The position numbers and the translations under genes are program-made. Source: a virus. From it: a stretch of 64,000 nucleotides of DNA. Position 1 is the first letter of the stretch, and each line of letters begins with the position of its first letter. The notes below the pieces were generated by a model. The model had not been told where the DNA came from. It saw only the letters and a program-made list of their open reading frames with translations, and made no database searches. The stretch spans positions 1 to 64,000 of the IMG/VR virus record IMGVR_UViG_3300027985_001265; one strand, written 5' to 3'. This document shows positions 1,790 to 61,177 of this stretch, piece by piece.

Positions 1790-3417
1790 TATTCCCAGTC
1801 TCCAGGTAGCACGTTATCAAAAACAAGTGGTGTTATGTTCTGAGGATAGTCAGTTGATTCACCAAACACAATAGCCGTATCAGGATCAAAGCTTCCATCA
1901 AAATCAGAAACAGTAGAAGCAGTAGAATCAACTATTAATTGCATCTTATCAACACCTGGATATGTGGGGTTATTATCTCCACATGAAATAGTGAATGAAT
2001 AGCTTGTAAATGCTTCCCAATCTAAAGCAACTGATATTGTATTTGTCCCATCCATAAGATCAATGTATCCATTACCAGAACCATCTGTCCTGAACTGCAA
2101 AAGGTTCTGAGTTCCACCATACAAAAGGCAGACTGTCGTTGAAACTGGAAGATCGGAATAGCTAAAGCTTGGGGTCCAGTTAAACTTGAGTTTAAAACTA
2201 GCCGAAGAAACTTTTTTTATGGATATGCTATCAATTACAACTAATCCTGTTTGATTACCTACAGTAAAGAAAATCTTTCCGTTGTCTATGGTGCATAGAA
2301 CTCTGTATATGTAAACGCCAGCGGTTAACGCTCCGAGAGTCTTAGAGTCTGAAAACCCTGACGCAGAAAGAAATATATCTACTCCTGTGTTGGAAACTAC
2401 TCTTAATTTAACTTCATACATTTCTCCAGAAATAAATTCAGATGACGCAGGCTGGTAAGCAGTGCCATAGTTGGAGTTTATTGTAAAAGTAATAACTCCA
2501 TCAGATACAGTAGAATTGGTAGTCGTCCAAGATTCATCATTACTTACTATTATCTCTGTACCATCAGCCTTACCATCCAGCAACTCATACAACTTGTCTC
2601 CAACAACCGTAGGAGCATTTATCGTCCCTGCCCTGGATGCAATGGTTGTATCGCCTGGTCCTGTGAAAGGCCAGATATGGCCTAACTCATTTGCGTAAAG
2701 ACATGCGAATACTATAATATTGGACTCGTTAGATGACTTTGGACCAATCCCAACTTTAAGTGTATTAGATGGATTATTCCACATTATTGAAAATAGGATA
2801 TAAGAAAATCCTGCTGAATGATCACCGTATCCATCCACCGTTGGAACTCCAGCAGATGATCCAGCTATTGTCCAAAGTGTCCCGTCATAATCTATATAAC
2901 TTTCGCGTGCTAAAGTAAGGTCTCTAAAAGTGATTCTTCCTATTCCAGAGCTACCCTTATTATATAGAATACAAAAACTCTGCCCACCTGTTGGATTCCC
3001 GTCCAAAACAGAAGAGTAGAATTGACCTCTATGTAATATGTTACCATTATCGGTAAAAATGGTCTCTGTAAAATCACCTATAATGTTTCCAATACTTACA
3101 TCGCAAGTGTTTTCCCACTGACTCGGATCATAAGGATAAGTACACATCTGATCCCAGGAGCCCATGCTCCAGAATTTTGCAAAAGCGTATAATGGTGATT
3201 CGGCAGGAACGGTAACAATTTCACCATTAGAATTAATGTAATATGCTGGCCCTGTGGAGTAGTCTTCAGTATTACCTATAAGCATTTTCCACAAAAAGGC
3301 TTTAATTGAACCAGCAAGCCCAGGATAAAGATCATCTATCCCAAAAGCAGAAGCAGATATTTTATTTAAAATAGGAATCATAAACAGCCCCTCTACCCGT
3401 TCAAATATTAACGCCAA
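1789..3417 (-). CDS. Putative head/tail spike-fibre protein with beta-sandwich (carbohydrate-binding-like) domains
   Basis: 542 aa, S/T/G/aromatic-rich. 'AYYINSNGEIVTVPAESP' resembles phage spike-fibre N-termini. Confidence 0.55.
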   Translation of the reverse strand: MALIFERVEGLFMIPILNKISASAFGIDDLYPGLAGSIKAFLWKMLIGNTEDYSTGPAYYINSNGEIVTVPAESPLYAFAKFWSMGSWDQMCTYPYDPSQWENTCDVSIGNIIGDFTETIFTDNGNILHRGQFYSSVLDGNPTGGQSFCILYNKGSSGIGRITFRDLTLARESYIDYDGTLWTIAGSSAGVPTVDGYGDHSAGFSYILFSIMWNNPSNTLKVGIGPKSSNESNIIVFACLYANELGHIWPFTGPGDTTIASRAGTINAPTVVGDKLYELLDGKADGTEIIVSNDESWTTTNSTVSDGVITFTINSNYGTAYQPASSEFISGEMYEVKLRVVSNTGVDIFLSASGFSDSKTLGALTAGVYIYRVLCTIDNGKIFFTVGNQTGLVVIDSISIKKVSSASFKLKFNWTPSFSYSDLPVSTTVCLLYGGTQNLLQFRTDGSGNGYIDLMDGTNTISVALDWEAFTSYSFTISCGDNNPTYPGVDKMQLIVDSTASTVSDFDGSFDPDTAIVFGESTDYPQNITPLVFDNVLPGDWE

Positions 3418-42627: not shown

Positions 42628-43797
42628 TTAAATTGTTTTCTTGAGTTGATCCAGGTAGTCGGCCCACCATTGCATCATCTTGGTTCTTTCAGGTAAATAC
42701 TCAGCATGGTTATATGCAGCCTTTACCTTATTTCGTTCTGCATGAGCAAGTTGCATTTCAACATAAGAGGTATTCCAGCCGTTTTCATTTAATAATGTGG
42801 AAGCCATAGCTCTAAAACCATGACCACACATTTCAACTTTTTCATACCCTAATCGACGTATTGCAGCCAAGACGGTATTTCCACTCATGGGTCGGGAATC
42901 TGTCATGATAGATGGGAAAAGGTATTTGGACCTATGTTCAGTATAAGGTCGAAGATCTTCTATGATTTGCAAAGCTTGAATAGATAACGGGACAATATGT
43001 GGCCGGCGCATCTTCATCTTCTCTGACGGTATTTTCCAGACAGAGTTAACGGTATCTATTTCCGACCATTCTGCTTGGCGTAATTCTTTGGGACGCACAA
43101 ATACCAAAGGTGCTAATTTTAAAGCACACAGGGTAATGAATTGTCCGGTGTACCCATCAATAGACCGGAGCAAAGCACCTACTTCTTTTGGGTCTGTGAT
43201 GGTAGCCATGTGATTAATTTTTGTTGGTTTTAACGTATCTTTTAGAGCAGCCGTGACATCGTATTGGGCTCGCTCTGTAATGACGGCATAACGAAAGATT
43301 TGGCCACATGTTTGCCGTAAACGATGGGCTGTTTCATGAGTCCCTCGTTCTTCGACTATCCGCAAAATATTTAAAATATCTAAGGGTCCAATAGCATCAC
43401 AGACTTTTGATCCAATGAAAGGGAAGGCGTGTGTCTCCAGACGGGCCAATGTTCTTTTTGCATGAGTAGGCTCCCACCCAGGTTCTTTGGTATTGTACCA
43501 CTCCCGGGCAACAGCTTCAAAAGTGTAACCGATGACGGTATGTTTTGTAGGCTTGGGGTCAATACCGTCAGCGAGCTGTAATTTAGCCTCTTGACATTTA
43601 GCCCTGGCAGCCTTTAATTTGACTGTTGGGTACACCCCAAAGGCTAGTGTTTTGCGTTTATTGTTAAAGCGGTAATCCATACGCCAGTATTTTTGTCCGG
43701 TGGGCATTACCAGAATGTATAGACCATTACCATCGGCAAGCTTGTATTGCCTGTCCTGGGCCTTAGCATTACGGATAGCAGTATCTGAGAGTTTCAT
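42628..43797 (-). CDS. int: P4-family tyrosine integrase with arm-DNA-binding domain
   Basis: N-terminal 'YKLADGNGLY..V...G.K.WR..YR...KTLAFGVYP'; catalytic R (VRPKE), K, HGFR, H (LAH), Y (AAYN). Confidence 0.95.
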   Translation of the reverse strand: MKLSDTAIRNAKAQDRQYKLADGNGLYILVMPTGQKYWRMDYRFNNKRKTLAFGVYPTVKLKAARAKCQEAKLQLADGIDPKPTKHTVIGYTFEAVAREWYNTKEPGWEPTHAKRTLARLETHAFPFIGSKVCDAIGPLDILNILRIVEERGTHETAHRLRQTCGQIFRYAVITERAQYDVTAALKDTLKPTKINHMATITDPKEVGALLRSIDGYTGQFITLCALKLAPLVFVRPKELRQAEWSEIDTVNSVWKIPSEKMKMRRPHIVPLSIQALQIIEDLRPYTEHRSKYLFPSIMTDSRPMSGNTVLAAIRRLGYEKVEMCGHGFRAMASTLLNENGWNTSYVEMQLAHAERNKVKAAYNHAEYLPERTKMMQWWADYLDQLKKTI

Positions 43798-51550: not shown

Positions 51551-52150
51551 TCATGCTACTCTCCTTTCCGTAAGCATGCGGGCAGTGTTGGAATATTTCA
51601 GGGCTTCATAAGCTCCGAGGCTATCTGCAACATGTTCAAACTGTCCTTTGCCCATGGCTTTCCCTATCGGGTAATAGACCATATCAGTTCTTTGGAGTTT
51701 CCCGGTTTTTTTGCTGAAGACATTTTTCTGTGAAGTCTGCCATCCATACTTCTTACAGGCGGTCATCATCATTTCGGTTTTAGAGGCGTTTTCTTTGCCT
51801 GTCATGGCCTTTTTCACCTCTGCTGGTGTTGCCCATTCAACCGGAATATTCAACGTTGTAAACAGGGTTGTCGTTAACGCTACGGCCATGCCTAAACTTT
51901 TAGCTGCCGAAGCTGATTGACTGCTCGATGGGGGCAGCTCTGCAAGGACTCCTTGGATATTATATTTATTGACCAGCTCCGTGAGTTTCGCTGCGATATG
52001 GGTAATTCTCTGGACATCATCATCGGCAACCCGTAGCAGTTTATTCTTGGTTTTCTGGGTTTGAATTGTACCCAGATCTACAACTCGGCCATGTTGATTG
52101 ATGACACTACAGCCGAAGTTGCTGAATCCAGGATCAAGACATAGAATCAT
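51551..52150 (-). CDS. RuvC-like Holliday junction resolvase (N4 gp46-like)
   Basis: 'LDPGFSNFG', 'AELP', 'VKK..TG...ASK', 'EHVADSLG'. Confidence 0.88.
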   Translation of the reverse strand: MILCLDPGFSNFGCSVINQHGRVVDLGTIQTQKTKNKLLRVADDDVQRITHIAAKLTELVNKYNIQGVLAELPPSSSQSASAAKSLGMAVALTTTLFTTLNIPVEWATPAEVKKAMTGKENASKTEMMMTACKKYGWQTSQKNVFSKKTGKLQRTDMVYYPIGKAMGKGQFEHVADSLGAYEALKYSNTARMLTERRVA

Positions 52151-52677
52151 GCGACCTCCTTTATAAAGTCTATTCGTTTCTGAATTTCTGTTTTGAAATC
52201 ATCGAGGCCAAGATCGTTGTGAATAACAAAATCATAGTTGTAATTTTGATACTGGGTATCTCCGGAACTGGTGAAAGATTTTGCGGCTTCTTGTTCAGCT
52301 TTTTCCTGTCGGATCCAGACAGAAAAACATTTAACGGCGTTCCATAAACACCAGTCTCTAAGTTTCTGTATCTCTTCAGGTTCCCGGATATTGGTACAGA
52401 AAAATTCTGTTTCAAATGCTTCCCCGAGTCGAATTTTTTTACAGATTTCTCGGAAAGGAATATCATCCCAGGCAGTAGATAGATCTTTCAAATCTGAGAG
52501 AAGTTGTCGGCTCTTTGCATCTTTGGTTCCATCCCAGTCAAAAGCGTCTTTAGCTAGGTTTTTGACCCAATCAATGCTGGAGTATTCGGTAACTGTTTTC
52601 TCAGTGATCTCACGAAGAAGTTTAATGAAGGTGTCTTTCCCTACCCGGGGAGCACCGTTGATAATCAATACGATCAT
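52147..52677 (-). CDS. P-loop (d)NMP kinase-like protein
   Basis: 'INGAPRVGKDT', 'WDGTKD..SR.LLSDLK', 'IREPEEI', 'YDFVIHN'; AAGGAG RBS. Confidence 0.75.
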   Translation of the reverse strand: MIVLIINGAPRVGKDTFIKLLREITEKTVTEYSSIDWVKNLAKDAFDWDGTKDAKSRQLLSDLKDLSTAWDDIPFREICKKIRLGEAFETEFFCTNIREPEEIQKLRDWCLWNAVKCFSVWIRQEKAEQEAAKSFTSSGDTQYQNYNYDFVIHNDLGLDDFKTEIQKRIDFIKEVA

Positions 52678-52699
52678 TGTTTTTCTCCTTAATATTTTA

Positions 52700-53400
52700 A
52701 TAAGCCCCTGCATAAGATTCCGCCTATGCTTTAACGGACTGGCCGTCCGTGTCATTTGTCTCCCAGAGTTAGTCTAAGATTATTGTCCCAGACACAGTAT
52801 CATCAGGTTTTGATCCTGACTCCCTTCGCTCCAGCCCTCGGCAAGCGATCCAGATTTGAACTGGCCCTTACATAAGATACTGAATACCTTATGTAAGATG
52901 CAGTTCTATCACCAGAGTTTAATAACCGGTTACGCATCCGGTGCGGGTTTCTCATTTACCGCCGACTATCCGTTTAGGTATAATAGCACCAAGGCGTTTG
53001 CATCCCTTTTTTTGTGTCGGGCTTGTTCACCGACTCCAGGACTTCCTCATGAAAGCGTCCCTCTCACTCACCCACACTTTATTTAAGCGACTGTGGGCTT
53101 AACCGTCATATAGACCCCGCTTTTGTGTCAGGTTTTTGAATACTGACTCCGGGACAGCTTTATAAAAGATGCCCTATGCTATGGCTCTCCATGCAGAGGT
53201 GTGACCATAGCTGTTGCATGGAACAGACAAAATACTGCAATGATTTCTTTCAAGAAAATTTGATGTTAAACTAGAATTGAAATTACTTAGAGGGAGTTCC
53301 CTGGTTTGCAGACTCCAGGACTTCGACATACTCGGTTGGAATGATTATCGAATTTCCACAGTTTAGACAAAGACAGAATGTCCATGCGGGGTCTATACAA
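52700..53400 (-). ncRNA. Large structured non-coding RNA candidate of unknown class
   Basis: No credible ORF; about a dozen stems; 12-bp long-range helix; repeated stem-GGA-stem module; G-U pairs favour the - strand. Confidence 0.65.
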
Positions 53401-53437
53401 GAAAGTTTTAATGTATTGCTACATTGGCATTTTTCTT

Positions 53438-53689
53438 TCATCCTAATGCCTCCATGAACGGAATTTTCTTTACCTTGGGAAGTTTCTTAATGTAAACCTC
53501 CAAGCGGAATGCTTCACTCTTTTTGAACCCGGACTTCCAGGCTATCAATGATACTGGACATCTGGCCCGGGTGTACTTAGCTCCTTTGCCTGCATTATGT
53601 TGATGGACCCTGCGCTGCAGATCATTTGTTACTCCACAATAGAGAGATCCGTCTGAACACCGTAGCAGGTATACAGACCACTTATTCAT
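53438..53689 (-). CDS. GIY-YIG nuclease (YhbQ/UPF0213-like)
   Basis: 'VYLLRCSDGSLYCGVTNDLQRR..QHN.GKGAKYTR'. Confidence 0.9.
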   Translation of the reverse strand: MNKWSVYLLRCSDGSLYCGVTNDLQRRVHQHNAGKGAKYTRARCPVSLIAWKSGFKKSEAFRLEVYIKKLPKVKKIPFMEALG

Positions 53690-58867: not shown

Positions 58868-61177
58868 CTATGCAGCCATAGGACTTCTGTATTTGGCCGG
58901 CAGATCTCCGAACATGACCACCCTCTCCCGAGCACGACTGATTGCTACATAGAGCATCCGGGCAACGTCAGACGGGATATTGCATCGGCCGATATCATAG
59001 AGGTCAATGAAGACTTGATCATATGAAACTGCCCTGGGATTTATGGACAGTACTGGCATACGGGGATCTGAGATCCAGCCAGGTATTTTTGATATTGAAG
59101 TACCGGGTCCAGAGTTCTTTACGTTCATGGGGATTATCTTGCATAGCTTTAGAATTGGCTTCTTTGGCTATGGCCTGCATACGGGCTTTGGTATCCATAG
59201 GATTGTTCGGTAGAAACAGAACCTGCTCTCCATTGATTTCCGCATTTCTGCCAAGAACCTCTTCTATGAGTATTTCATCCCCCAGCCATGTGATTGCCAC
59301 CTCGCTGTCTACGGGAGTAACTGTGCCACCAGCGATAATGGGATTATTGGTGATGGCCAGTTCCCCTTCCTGAAAACTGTTGCCAAGGCCTTTTATCTTC
59401 CGCAAGTGCATGTTGTATTCCTGCACTCTAATATTACTCCAGGCTAAGACTTTTGCGCTGTTGATGGAAAATAGAGGGTTTATAAAAGCCTTTTCCATCT
59501 CCTCTTTGAAAGTGGGGCCGTCCACCAGGAGTACCTTGTCGGAAAGTAGAATATCTTGAAATACTTGAGTCTGGACCACTTCACGGAAAGCTGATGCTGC
59601 TTCCAAGATAGGACCGTCATGTCGCATGACTTGGCTCATAATTGCGGTAGGTACCTTGTGCATAAGAAGCTGCATATTGGACACCTTCTGTTGTACCGGA
59701 GCCAACTGAAATACGTCCCCGATCAGGACAGCCTTTGATGTTTTCTGAAGCGATTCCTCTAAAAACCTAAAGGTATCCACGTCCAGCATGCTGGCTTCAT
59801 CCATGATGACGACAGTATCTTTTAAATAGGTAAACCGGTTTGTCTTCTGAAGACTCTCCTTTCCTGTCCGATAATTTGGTACAAGTTTCAATCCAAGTGT
59901 GGAATGAATGGTATTCACCGTTGGGTTTTTGGATAACTCCCTGAGAACTGCAACGGCCTTGTTGGTTGTGGCCGTTAATACGATCTGAAAATCCTGTTTA
60001 TTCGGATCTTCACACATTACGGTCTTGAGTACCTTGTACTGCTTAGAGATGCTGGAAAGCATCTTTTTGATCATGGTGGTTTTTCCCGGAATGTTCAGTA
60101 AAGGCGTCACTCTTTACCAGTTCTTTTATGAACTTCTGCATATTTCTATGCAGCCCAGACCATATCTTCATCTTTTCTATAGCAATCAGAGCAGACACCC
60201 CCTCTTTGAATCCAAGGAGAATCACTGCGTCTGTTGAAAATATTTTGACAGTGTTTACAGGTAAATTTTACATACCTGCGTTTATTGATAACTTCGGTAG
60301 TTATTAACCGAGAACCAAGGATAGAAGTTAATTCCTGTAACTTCTTTTTTTCTTGTAATTTTCCCGTAGCAATTCCACCAAGGCGCCTCACTTTATCTTG
60401 TCTTCCTTGTTTGATGGAATGTTGCATATTTTCTTTATGAGTGGACCACTCTAAATTTGTATTAAAATTATGGAGTCCGTTGTTATCAATATGGTTTATA
60501 AAAGGTTTATTATCAGGATTTGGGATAAAAGCTTCAGCAACTAGTCTATGCACAGAGAATCGTTTTGTTTTTCCATTTATTGAAAAAGTAACCCTATGAT
60601 AAGAAGTGTGTTTTCTTTTATCCACATCTGGCTTTAATTCTCGAATACCTGTTCTTGAACTGTTTGGCATTGAGAACACTCTGCCTTTATTTGAAATTTG
60701 ATATCTACCTTCATAACCTACAATGTCTTTGATAATTTCTGACATGATTTACCTCATTACTTTAATTATTAAACCCTGTGTAAGGTTTAATAAAAATAAA
60801 TAGGTAAGTCTAGTTTCACATCAGCTTTAAAAAGAGTCCCCCATTTCCACATCACTTGATGTGTACGGCTTTCGCCTGGTCGTTGAACCTTCTCCATACT
60901 ATTTTAGATTAGGAGCTTGGCTGCTGATTGCCCATTAATTATCCGTTTACTTGTCAAACCTTTATAAGCTCTTTTCAGGCGTATTGTGGTAAAACGGCTT
61001 TAGGGGTTTCCAGCAATTAAAGGGATTTATTTTGAGGGGATCACTCCCCAAAGGAACCTATTACAAACAAGTTCCGGCAGCCCCCTGGATGATCATGTAT
61101 CGTTCATTGGGATTCTTCAGGAACTTCATGAATGTCTTGATGACATTCTTCTGTTCATCGGTGAGTTCAAAGTCCAA
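58868..61177 (-). CDS. SF1B (Dda/RecD-like) DNA helicase, N4 gp37-like; intron-split and with a 1-nt frameshift near the 3' end
   Basis: Exon 1 at 61177-61070 (MDFELTDEQK...IQGAAGT) joined to exon 2 from 60086 (GKTT) gives Walker A. Also 'DEASM', 'IGDVFQL.PV', 'TVHKSQG', then 'YDQVFIDL...YVAISRAR' in a second frame. Confidence 0.9.
60087..61069 (-). mobile_element. Group I self-splicing intron
   Basis: 5' exon ends in U and the intron ends in G. P1 GGAACU/GGUUCC. P AAUUGCUGGAAA, Q AAUCAGCAG, R GUUCAACGACCA, S AAGAUAUGGUCU. Confidence 0.92.
60146..60745 (-). CDS. Intron-encoded NUMOD4-HNH homing endonuclease
   Basis: 'KDIVGYEGRYQISNKGRV' NUMOD4; 'VHRLVAEAFIPNP...NHIDN...N...NLEW....EN..H'; C-terminal CxxC pair. 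Confidence 0.92.
   Translation of the reverse strand: MSEIIKDIVGYEGRYQISNKGRVFSMPNSSRTGIRELKPDVDKRKHTSYHRVTFSINGKTKRFSVHRLVAEAFIPNPDNKPFINHIDNNGLHNFNTNLEWSTHKENMQHSIKQGRQDKVRRLGGIATGKLQEKKKLQELTSILGSRLITTEVINKRRYVKFTCKHCQNIFNRRSDSPWIQRGGVCSDCYRKDEDMVWAA

Follow-up and report, generated by a model that had tools for sequence, protein, structure and literature searches.

The 64,000-nucleotide (nt) stretch analyzed in this study (positions 1 to 64,000 of the IMG/VR virus record IMGVR_UViG_3300027985_001265, referred to as the window) represents most of a 73.8-kb virus record that is approximately 95% complete. On its minus strand, a long gap separates the gene for an 83-aa GIY-YIG domain protein located upstream (53438..53689; Pfam PF01541, E = 3e-18) from the gene for a dNMP-kinase-like protein located downstream (52147..52677, start at 52677; phrog_139, E = 1.5e-9). 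In the first-pass annotation, which was made from the sequence alone, this gap was proposed to encode a non-coding RNA of approximately 700 nt. A structured minus-strand RNA is indeed present; however, its conserved part comprises only about 165 to 190 nt (52686-52882) and is referred to as "R1", a label coined in this analysis for the conserved RNA family. The R1 core (52704..52869), as delineated by a covariance model and family covariation, consists of the elements AAGG, H1, J1, P2, h2a, H3, H4, h6, P2', H5, H6, and a pseudoknot tail, and is a single copy of an accessory RNA gene belonging to a widespread, phage-restricted family. The ribosome-binding site of the dNMP-kinase-like gene follows 15 nt past the R1 tail. 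The flagged interval as a whole is composite, being made up of the conserved R1, a lineage-specific part of about 400 nt that contains internal duplications, and a doubtful open reading frame (ORF) of 52 codons.

Mapping of the region on GenBank phage genomes by blastn yielded matches for positions 52716-52848 only, with identities of 76–82% and to unannotated DNA in every case. The matched genomes were those of two Pseudomonas putida phages of about 75 kb, one Salmonella jumbo phage, and one Shewanella jumbo phage. Degenerate patterns deduced from the conserved blocks retrieved approximately 35 true copies from IMG/VR and approximately 50 from metagenomes, and the final collection comprised about 70 distinct R1 copies originating from IMG/VR, from metagenomes, and from the genomes of seven cultured phages, namely Pseudomonas phages OBP, D6, Ebordelon, and Holyagarpour, Salmonella phage SA002, Klebsiella phage FBKp24, and Shewanella phage SXP01. 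A covariance model was trained on 30 sequences; every one of 52 additional loci from genome contigs and metagenomes was recognized by it (52/52), as were the copies of D6, OBP, and FBKp24. Within the window, this model produced one match (52686-52882; 177.5 bits, E = 6e-50, model positions 1-197), which is full-length and includes P2, H1, H3 to H6, and the pseudoknot, with one P2 pair being C-A and the closing pair of H1 being G-A. Three of the metagenomic R1 copies (L122, L137, and L146) reside on very long contigs of 0.68, 1.86, and 1.54 Mb, respectively, which might stem from giant viruses, from cellular genomes, or from misassembly.

The virus record features an N4-like gene content, including a 3454-aa ORF, a family-A DNA polymerase, Rha, RuvC, ThyX, and an intron-split helicase. 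R1 was not found in eight complete or near-complete N4-like relatives, the positive controls being matched once each. A search with the DNA polymerase (polA) as query recovered 13 distant relatives, none of them encoding R1 or the same downstream genes, and the dNMP-kinase query recovered no relatives of the phage. R1 occurs as a single copy in each phage checked, and the strict R1 pattern was found in bacteria and archaea (one genome each of 185,579 species) on only two contigs, both belonging to metagenome-assembled genomes. Because of its single-copy state, its absence from all eight N4-like relatives, and its restriction to these two contigs outside of phages, R1 is regarded as accessory, sporadic, and phage-restricted.

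Base-pair covariation was evaluated on an alignment of 63 distinct R1 sequences. The proportion of paired cells was 97.8%, compared to 30–41% when the 3' partners were slid by one to three columns. Both-sided (compensatory) changes were detected in 29 of the 36 R1 pairs, and none of 500 shuffles reached the observed values. The collection of homologues followed by covariation analysis had been proposed in the first-pass annotation as a check on the RNA, and the outcome speaks for its conserved part, R1. The comparative support for R1 is unusually clean, and selection acts strongly on the fold of this RNA across many phages that are not related to each other. The minus strand, previously deduced from G-U pairs, is also the right one, since the closing pair of H3 is G-U in 61 of the 63 sequences and would be C-A on the other strand.

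According to these results, R1 is a compact body of six hairpins, a 4-bp long-range helix, and a pseudoknot between the H5 loop and the 3' tail. H1, the first T-arm-like hairpin (52849..52865; GCCAG-UUCAAAU-CUGGA), exhibits compensatory changes in five of five pairs and carries the family loop G-UUCRAWU-C. It is followed by the mini-hairpin h2a (52828..52835; GC-UGGA-GC, in the family GC-UGGU-GC), which provides the partner loop of H1 and whose stem pair 59-94 is represented by GC in 28, AU in 14, and UA in 8 sequences. H3, the second T-arm-like hairpin (52802..52820; GUCAGG-AUCAAAA-CCUGAU), shows compensatory changes in five of six pairs, and H4 (52772..52793), a hairpin with the conserved loop CAAUAA, in six of six pairs as well as in the inner pair 142-149. 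The mini-hairpin h6 (52760..52768; CUC-UGG-GAG, in the family CUC-UGGU-GAG) provides the partner loop of H3; its stem is invariant and hence gives no covariation signal. The covarying long-range helix P2 (52750..52843) joins positions 52840-52843 with 52750-52753 and thereby encloses h2a, H3, H4, and h6; its pairs 51-197, 52-196, and 53-195 undergo GC/AU/UA/CG exchanges, with 99.2% of the cells being paired. H5 (52735..52749; CGGAC-GGCCA-GUCCG) is paired in 99.7% of the cells, and H6 (52710..52729) features an invariant loop CGGAAU, conserved in at least 90% of the sequences, above a stem that shows compensatory exchanges at five of five modelled positions. The stems ACGGAC/GTCCGT, GCATAGG/CTTATGC, and GTCTGGGA/TCTTAGAC, initially listed from the sequence alone, turned out to be H5, H6, and H4, respectively, and are supported by covariation in the 63 sequences; all other stems and repeats listed at that stage were likewise found in the sequence.

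The pseudoknot is formed by the H5 loop GCC(A) (52740-52743) and the GGGC of the 3' tail AGGGGC (52704..52707), where columns 205/206/208/209 pair with columns 274-271. Both partners switch in a coordinated manner within the family, namely as GCCC/GGGC, GCAC/GUGC, GCUU/AAGC, GCUA/UAGC, ACAC/GUGU, and GCUCC/GGAGC. Mutual information revealed additional contacts, including C47-G57, and in one R1 subfamily the H4 loop, J5, and the tail change together, which points to more tertiary contacts. The most conserved parts of the RNA are the single strands GAAGGGA, GAUAUGU, ACAAAU, and UUAAA and the loop CGGAAU.

Two further contacts connect the T-arm-like hairpins with the mini-hairpins. The T-loops of H1 and H3 both fit the family consensus G-UUCRAWU-C. 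Between the H1 and h2a loops, columns 28-68 are occupied by CG in 46, AU in three, UA in three, and GC in two sequences, and columns 26-64 by UG in 46 and GA in seven. Correspondingly, columns 112-181 of the H3 and h6 loops are occupied by UG in 45 and GA in ten sequences, and columns 113-182 by CG in 52 and AU in two. Both loop-loop contacts run in the parallel register known from the elbow of tRNA, i.e., G18-Psi55 and G19-C56 (PMC4810234). Furthermore, the loop type of H1 tracks that of h2a, in that members without a T-loop in H1 lack GG in h2a (Fisher p = 2e-5). From these sequence patterns, each of the two T-arm hairpins is predicted to be docked on its own UGGU mini-hairpin, with the same register that T-loop and D-loop adopt at the tRNA elbow. 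The arrangement of a T-loop on a GG loop was thus recognized in two R1 modules, which represents a resemblance of modules and not membership in the tRNA or YrlA families.

Scanning of the whole window against Rfam 15 at the gathering score, and of positions 52500-53600 at E ≤ 10 with permissive filters, returned no family matching R1; the flagged interval drew only chance matches (freshwater-2 and SOX2OT). Likewise, nothing overlapping R1 was returned at E ≤ 1 for five other R1 loci. R1 is unannotated in the GenBank records of all seven cultured phages, and no description of it was found in full-text literature searches, including one for a 15-nt motif. R1 is a structured RNA not catalogued so far and absent from Rfam 15, in agreement with the initial statement that the RNA could not be assigned to a known class. 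A catalogue from 2023 comprises 10,006 unnamed candidate viral RNAs (PMC10690425), and R1 may be one of its unnamed entries. An architecture of two tRNA elbows and a pseudoknot was not described in the literature searched. Well-conserved, large structured RNAs of unknown function are rare and have repeatedly been a source of new biochemistry.

Several known systems share individual traits with R1. Regarding tRNA (RF00005), the R1 hairpins carry the canonical T-arm consensus G53-U-U-C-R-A-N-Y-C61, and their GG partner loops lie in the 18-55/19-56 register; however, R1 lacks a cloverleaf, an anticodon loop, and a 7-bp acceptor stem, and neither an ARAGORN call nor an RF00005 match overlapped it. 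A circularly permuted tRNA was dropped as a candidate because P2 measures only 4 bp, the T-arm is followed by a 5-nt spacer, and the H6 loop comprises 6 nt. YrlA-type Y RNAs are stable, mimic the tRNA elbow by means of a T-arm on a GG-containing loop, and are in some cases encoded by phages (PMC4201824). R1 is also a phage-encoded non-coding RNA with a T-arm predicted to dock on a GG loop, but it features two elbow modules and a pseudoknot and lacks the Ro60-binding stem; a Ro60 gene was not noticed in its vicinity, and YrlA (RF02553) gave no match overlapping R1. In the R1 region of Salmonella phage SA002 (L002), a weak YrlA-like match (2395-2512; 32 bits, below threshold) and an unannotated match to the tRNA model (3157-3227; 34 bits) were observed, both on the plus strand.

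The T4 species 1 and species 2 RNAs (rnaC and rnaD) are small, stable, of unknown function, and located in a phage tRNA array beside a GIY-YIG gene (segB), but are shorter than R1 (139 and 119 nt), and the R1 model found nothing in T4 66000-76000 at E ≤ 10. The comparison with GOLLD (RF01998) and ROOL (RF03087) offered in the first-pass annotation is appropriate insofar as these RNAs are phage-borne and richly structured, have no known function, and are often neighbours of tRNA genes, and as R1 lies near tRNA genes in other phages. It fails with respect to size, since they are three to four times larger than R1 (approximately 190 nt in most phages), and with respect to the models, neither of which matched here, while the same tool found a ROOL RNA with 304 bits on another IMG/VR contig (L107, 8901-9420, minus strand). 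Upstream of this ROOL RNA, approximately 330 nt of non-coding sequence are unexplained. No tmRNA match was obtained for the interval, and the only group I intron (RF00028) in the window was located at 60752-61079 (minus strand; 59.5 bits), with none in 52500-53600 at E ≤ 10.

The genomic setting of R1 was compared across 84 loci. In most of them, R1 (approximately 165–190 nt) fills a short intergenic gap or is placed between two tRNA genes. In about 20 of the 84 loci, e.g., L030, L051, L068, L082, OBP, and D6, a same-strand tRNA gene lies 0–20 nt from the 5' or 3' end of R1; as this is the typical spacing within tRNA arrays, the R1 ends are presumably cut by tRNA processing there. Other loci feature R1 in a short gap between co-directional, unrelated genes. 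Clustering of the neighbouring proteins did not reveal a recurrent family near R1, and depending on the locus, R1 is followed by a tRNA gene or by unrelated genes. In the phage of this window, no tRNA genes were found by ARAGORN, and Ebordelon and Holyagarpour encode three tRNA genes at a distance of 20 kb from R1. In two loci (L138, 1159-1848, plus strand; and L025), an ORF for a GIY-YIG homing endonuclease replaces the segment from the 3' strand of H3 through H4, and the R1 gene is probably disrupted; this copy directly follows a tRNA-Lys gene. HNH genes are located near R1 in Ebordelon and D6.

Our best guess is that R1 represents a stable, trans-acting mimic of the tRNA elbow. R1 would be cut from a polycistronic transcript as a stable molecule of approximately 190 nt, namely by tRNA-processing enzymes in phages with tRNA arrays and by cleavage within an adjacent long hairpin in phages without such arrays. 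A long hairpin, specific to this stretch and absent from other family members, is located directly 5' of R1 (52858..52906; arms of 22 nt, 82% complementary). It competes with the conserved fold, since 8 nt of its 3' arm also belong to the 5' strand of H1, and may represent a processing site or an alternative structure. Once released, R1 might offer one or two tRNA-like elbows in trans to a tRNA-binding partner, candidates being a defence nuclease of the host that targets tRNA, an enzyme of tRNA processing or modification, or the ribosome, and thus serve as a decoy or scaffold. An action in trans is supported by the lack of a recurrent neighbouring family and by the downstream feature varying from locus to locus. 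Phage tRNA loci have been described as decoys or supplements against tRNA-cleaving defences, mobilized by GIY-YIG endonucleases (PMC13096335); this evidence for counter-defence at tRNA loci, together with R1 being at home in tRNA arrays, fits the idea of an elbow decoy or scaffold.

The different parts of this explanation deserve different degrees of confidence. Taken as a whole, i.e., an R1 family, a stable trans-acting elbow RNA, and a composite interval, it is considered slightly more likely than not. That R1 is excised as a stable RNA and presents tRNA-like elbows in trans is a tentative assumption, and it is speculative that R1 serves as decoy or scaffold by exposing these elbows to a partner that binds tRNA. 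Equally doubtful, albeit conceivable, is the broader proposal of a new RNA class whose two elbows and pseudoknotted core capture or redirect a host tRNA-binding machine (a tRNA-cleaving defence nuclease, RNase P or RNase Z, a modification enzyme, or the ribosome, for instance), and which acquired its 5' expansion of about 400 nt from its own duplicated pieces. If true, R1 would constitute an RNA-only accessory or counter-defence gene moving between unrelated phages. Being phage-borne and residing in tRNA arrays, it bears on current questions about the purpose of tRNA loci in phages and about phage responses to immunity directed at tRNAs, and its presence as an unannotated element in cultured phages makes it directly testable.

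A number of observations weigh against the elbow mimic. The association between the H3 and h6 loops was not significant in a crude motif test (p = 0.19), and the loop-loop statistics ignore the relatedness of the sequences. Moreover, several R1 members lack a T-loop in H1 or H3, and an elbow is hence no strict requirement. Folded RNAs commonly use T-loops as structural modules, e.g., in RNase P, T-box leaders, and some riboswitches, and therefore the two internal elbows may reflect architecture rather than mimicry. A catalytic or ligand-binding core would be as compatible with the invariant single strands as a protein-binding surface. The transcript ends and the stability of R1 are inferred solely from gene spacing, and its tRNA-binding partner is hypothetical.

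Among the rival explanations, the one closest to the first-pass annotation considers the whole 600–700 nt as one large ornate RNA, of which R1 would be the 3' domain and the upstream modules functional, lineage-specific expansions. The gap upstream of R1 is the largest among the 84 loci, and the sequence within it displays several conspicuous patterns. A perfect 12-bp inverted repeat (53109-53120/53386-53397; arms separated by 265 nt, extended to 15 bp when folded), detected at the outset and verified here, closes a domain of approximately 290 nt; by our own arithmetic, about 0.01 inverted repeats of this kind are expected by chance in 700 nt. The 5' domain (53105-53400) folds with z = -3.75, none of 200 shuffles being as good, compared to z = -2.06 for the opposite strand. 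The repeated module reported initially was verified as well: a unit of 29 nt occurs in three copies (53022-53050, 53135-53163, and 53301-53329), the exact 14-mer GAAGTCCTGGAGTC occurs twice within the repeated modules, and an additional repeat pair was found at 53010-53024/53121-53135. Between modules, a compensatory change is apparent (GUCAG/CUGAC versus GUCGG/CCGAC), and one repeat unit (GGAGUCAG...CUGA) is H3-like (z = 3.7), this being the sole significant match in Smith-Waterman comparisons with shuffles. Structured 5' extensions beside R1 also exist in the two Pseudomonas phages Ebordelon (L001, 2753-2975; z = -5.1) and Holyagarpour (L020, 2245-2477; z = -5.6), where the long helix of the approximately 220-nt extension stays complementary and the distal arms are unrelated between the phages.

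On the other hand, the middle part of the interval (52880-53110) folds like shuffled sequence (z = -0.06), and R1 is complete within approximately 190 nt in most phages, where it is sometimes wedged between two tRNA genes. No homologue of positions 52883-53440 was obtained by blastn against GenBank phages or by blastn and nhmmer on the flanks of the 83 other R1 loci. A degenerate module pattern retrieved five unrelated matches from IMG/VR, one of them adjoining a ROOL. Further copies of the upstream region were not found within the same genome, and the R1 model with filters off returned only trivial matches for partial R1 copies in the upstream region. The first 160 nt of the supposed RNA hold an ORF with a good Shine-Dalgarno sequence and a coupled start. 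Considering both sides, we regard a single large RNA as rather unlikely.

The ORF in question, a possible Cys-rich gene of 52 codons (53283..53441), is preceded by a GGAGG Shine-Dalgarno sequence 7 nt upstream, overlaps the stop codon of the GIY-YIG gene in an ATGA, and contains the 5' arm of the 12-bp inverted repeat. The initial claim that the gap contains no credible ORF was too strong in this respect. The codon usage, on the other hand, resembles that of spurious ORFs: the codon score of the ORF is -0.13, whereas spurious ORFs score -0.15 and genes +0.33, with the genuine GIY-YIG gene being atypical as well (-0.03). Moreover, neither a homologue among 5.8 billion proteins nor a PHROG was found, a small ORF of Ebordelon reaching only E = 0.23. 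Codon usage of this kind, not being gene-like, also speaks for the large RNA discussed above. Ebordelon encodes an unannotated Cys-rich ORF of 75 aa (L001, 2525-2752, plus strand; phrog_19749), and a structured region is located between this ORF and R1.

The orphan non-coding stretch between the ORF and R1 (52883..53282), which harbours repeated modules (53022-53050, 53135-53163, and others; computed repeats, no homologue), can be explained in a simpler way. A 25-nt direct repeat with 76% identity (52694-52718/52854-52878) relates the 3' end of R1, consisting of the 3' strand of H6 and AGGGGC, to sequence that immediately precedes H1 on its 5' side, and may represent the trace of a tandem duplication or recombination. 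Together with the H3-like repeat unit, it suggests local duplication. Since Ebordelon and Holyagarpour carry a structured, fast-varying extension, a lineage-specific structured leader is plausible in the window, too. The simplest reading of the extra 5' sequence is a structured leader or processing region particular to this lineage, or else the remains of local duplication events.

The second rival explanation concerns R1 itself, which might be a ribozyme or a cis-acting punctuation of RNA processing, either self-cutting or recruiting RNase P or RNase Z, that separates the flanking RNAs. R1 resembles small ribozymes in that a body of about 170 nt combines a pseudoknot and loop-loop contacts with junction strands that do not vary, and the sporadic spread without conserved neighbours is similar to that of the twister and hammerhead classes. 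Moreover, R1 is placed exactly where tRNAs punctuate transcripts. However, no cleavage site can be deduced, R1 exceeds the known self-cleaving classes in size, and it is also present in a phage without tRNA genes, inside an ordinary operon. For these reasons, a role as ribozyme or processing element appears unlikely.

Even less probable is a mainly selfish nature of the sequence, i.e., a homing-endonuclease target or passenger that spreads via recombination in hot spots of tRNA and homing-endonuclease genes and contributes little to phage function. It would account for the DNA identity of approximately 75–80% across the unrelated Ebordelon and Holyagarpour (approximately 75 kb), this N4-like phage, and the Salmonella and Shewanella jumbo phages, and agrees with the GIY-YIG gene upstream of R1 here, the HNH genes near R1 in Ebordelon and D6, the R1 copy with an inserted GIY-YIG ORF, and the 25-nt direct repeat bracketing R1 in the window. 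However, compensatory pairs, invariant loops, and a pseudoknot reflect selection on an RNA fold and not the pattern of a DNA site, and the endonuclease neighbours are inconsistent across loci.

A sponge for CsrA/RsmA-type proteins, another initial suggestion, is very improbable. GGA is mildly in excess in the region (20 occurrences versus 13.7 ± 2.6 in shuffles, p about 0.02), and one invariant GGA resides in the H6 loop CGGAAU. However, this count is within the range found elsewhere on the strand (maximum 21 per 701 nt), AGGA is not enriched, few GGA fall into predicted hairpin loops, and the conserved R1 family features one loop GGA only. No CsrB, RsmY, or RsmZ match was obtained from Rfam in 52500-53600 at E ≤ 10, and the CsrB/RsmZ type of sponge was rejected as a class on these grounds.

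RNase P RNA (RF00010, RF00011) shares with R1 the link to tRNA loci, T-loop modules, and a few short words; however, R1 has no model match and no P4, and its members lack a specificity domain. The RNase P models (bacterial A and B, archaeal, and type T) gave no match in 52500-53600 even at E ≤ 10, none in the window at the gathering score, and none in five other R1 loci at E ≤ 1. A P4 helix composed of a CR-I strand (GGAAAGUCC-like) and a CR-V strand (...GGCUUA) was also rejected: the 3' strand AGGGGCUU (AGGGGC tail) covaries with the H5 loop instead, and the 5' strand candidate GAAGUCC is absent from every other R1 member. The idea that the 3' 400 nt are a degenerate RNase P-like RNA, which had been raised because of short collinear words including GGCUUAU and AGACAAAU (versus AGAUGAAU of E. 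coli; these words serve as leads only) and which could draw on R1 occurring within the tRNA arrays of other phages, therefore deserves practically no credence, given that GAAGUCC, like all else that would make up a specificity domain, exists only in this stretch, in the part that folds like shuffles (z = -0.06), and that R1 members between tRNA genes leave no room for P1-P12.

Concerning the remaining features of the window, promoter and terminator scans yielded nothing exceeding shuffles. The group I intron mentioned above is adjoined by an ORF with NUMOD4 and HNH domains (60149-60745, minus strand) beside the helicase gene (59022-60110). Furthermore, the gene at 42631-43797 (minus strand) encodes a tyrosine integrase that carries an Arm-DNA-binding domain, which is unusual for N4-like gene content.

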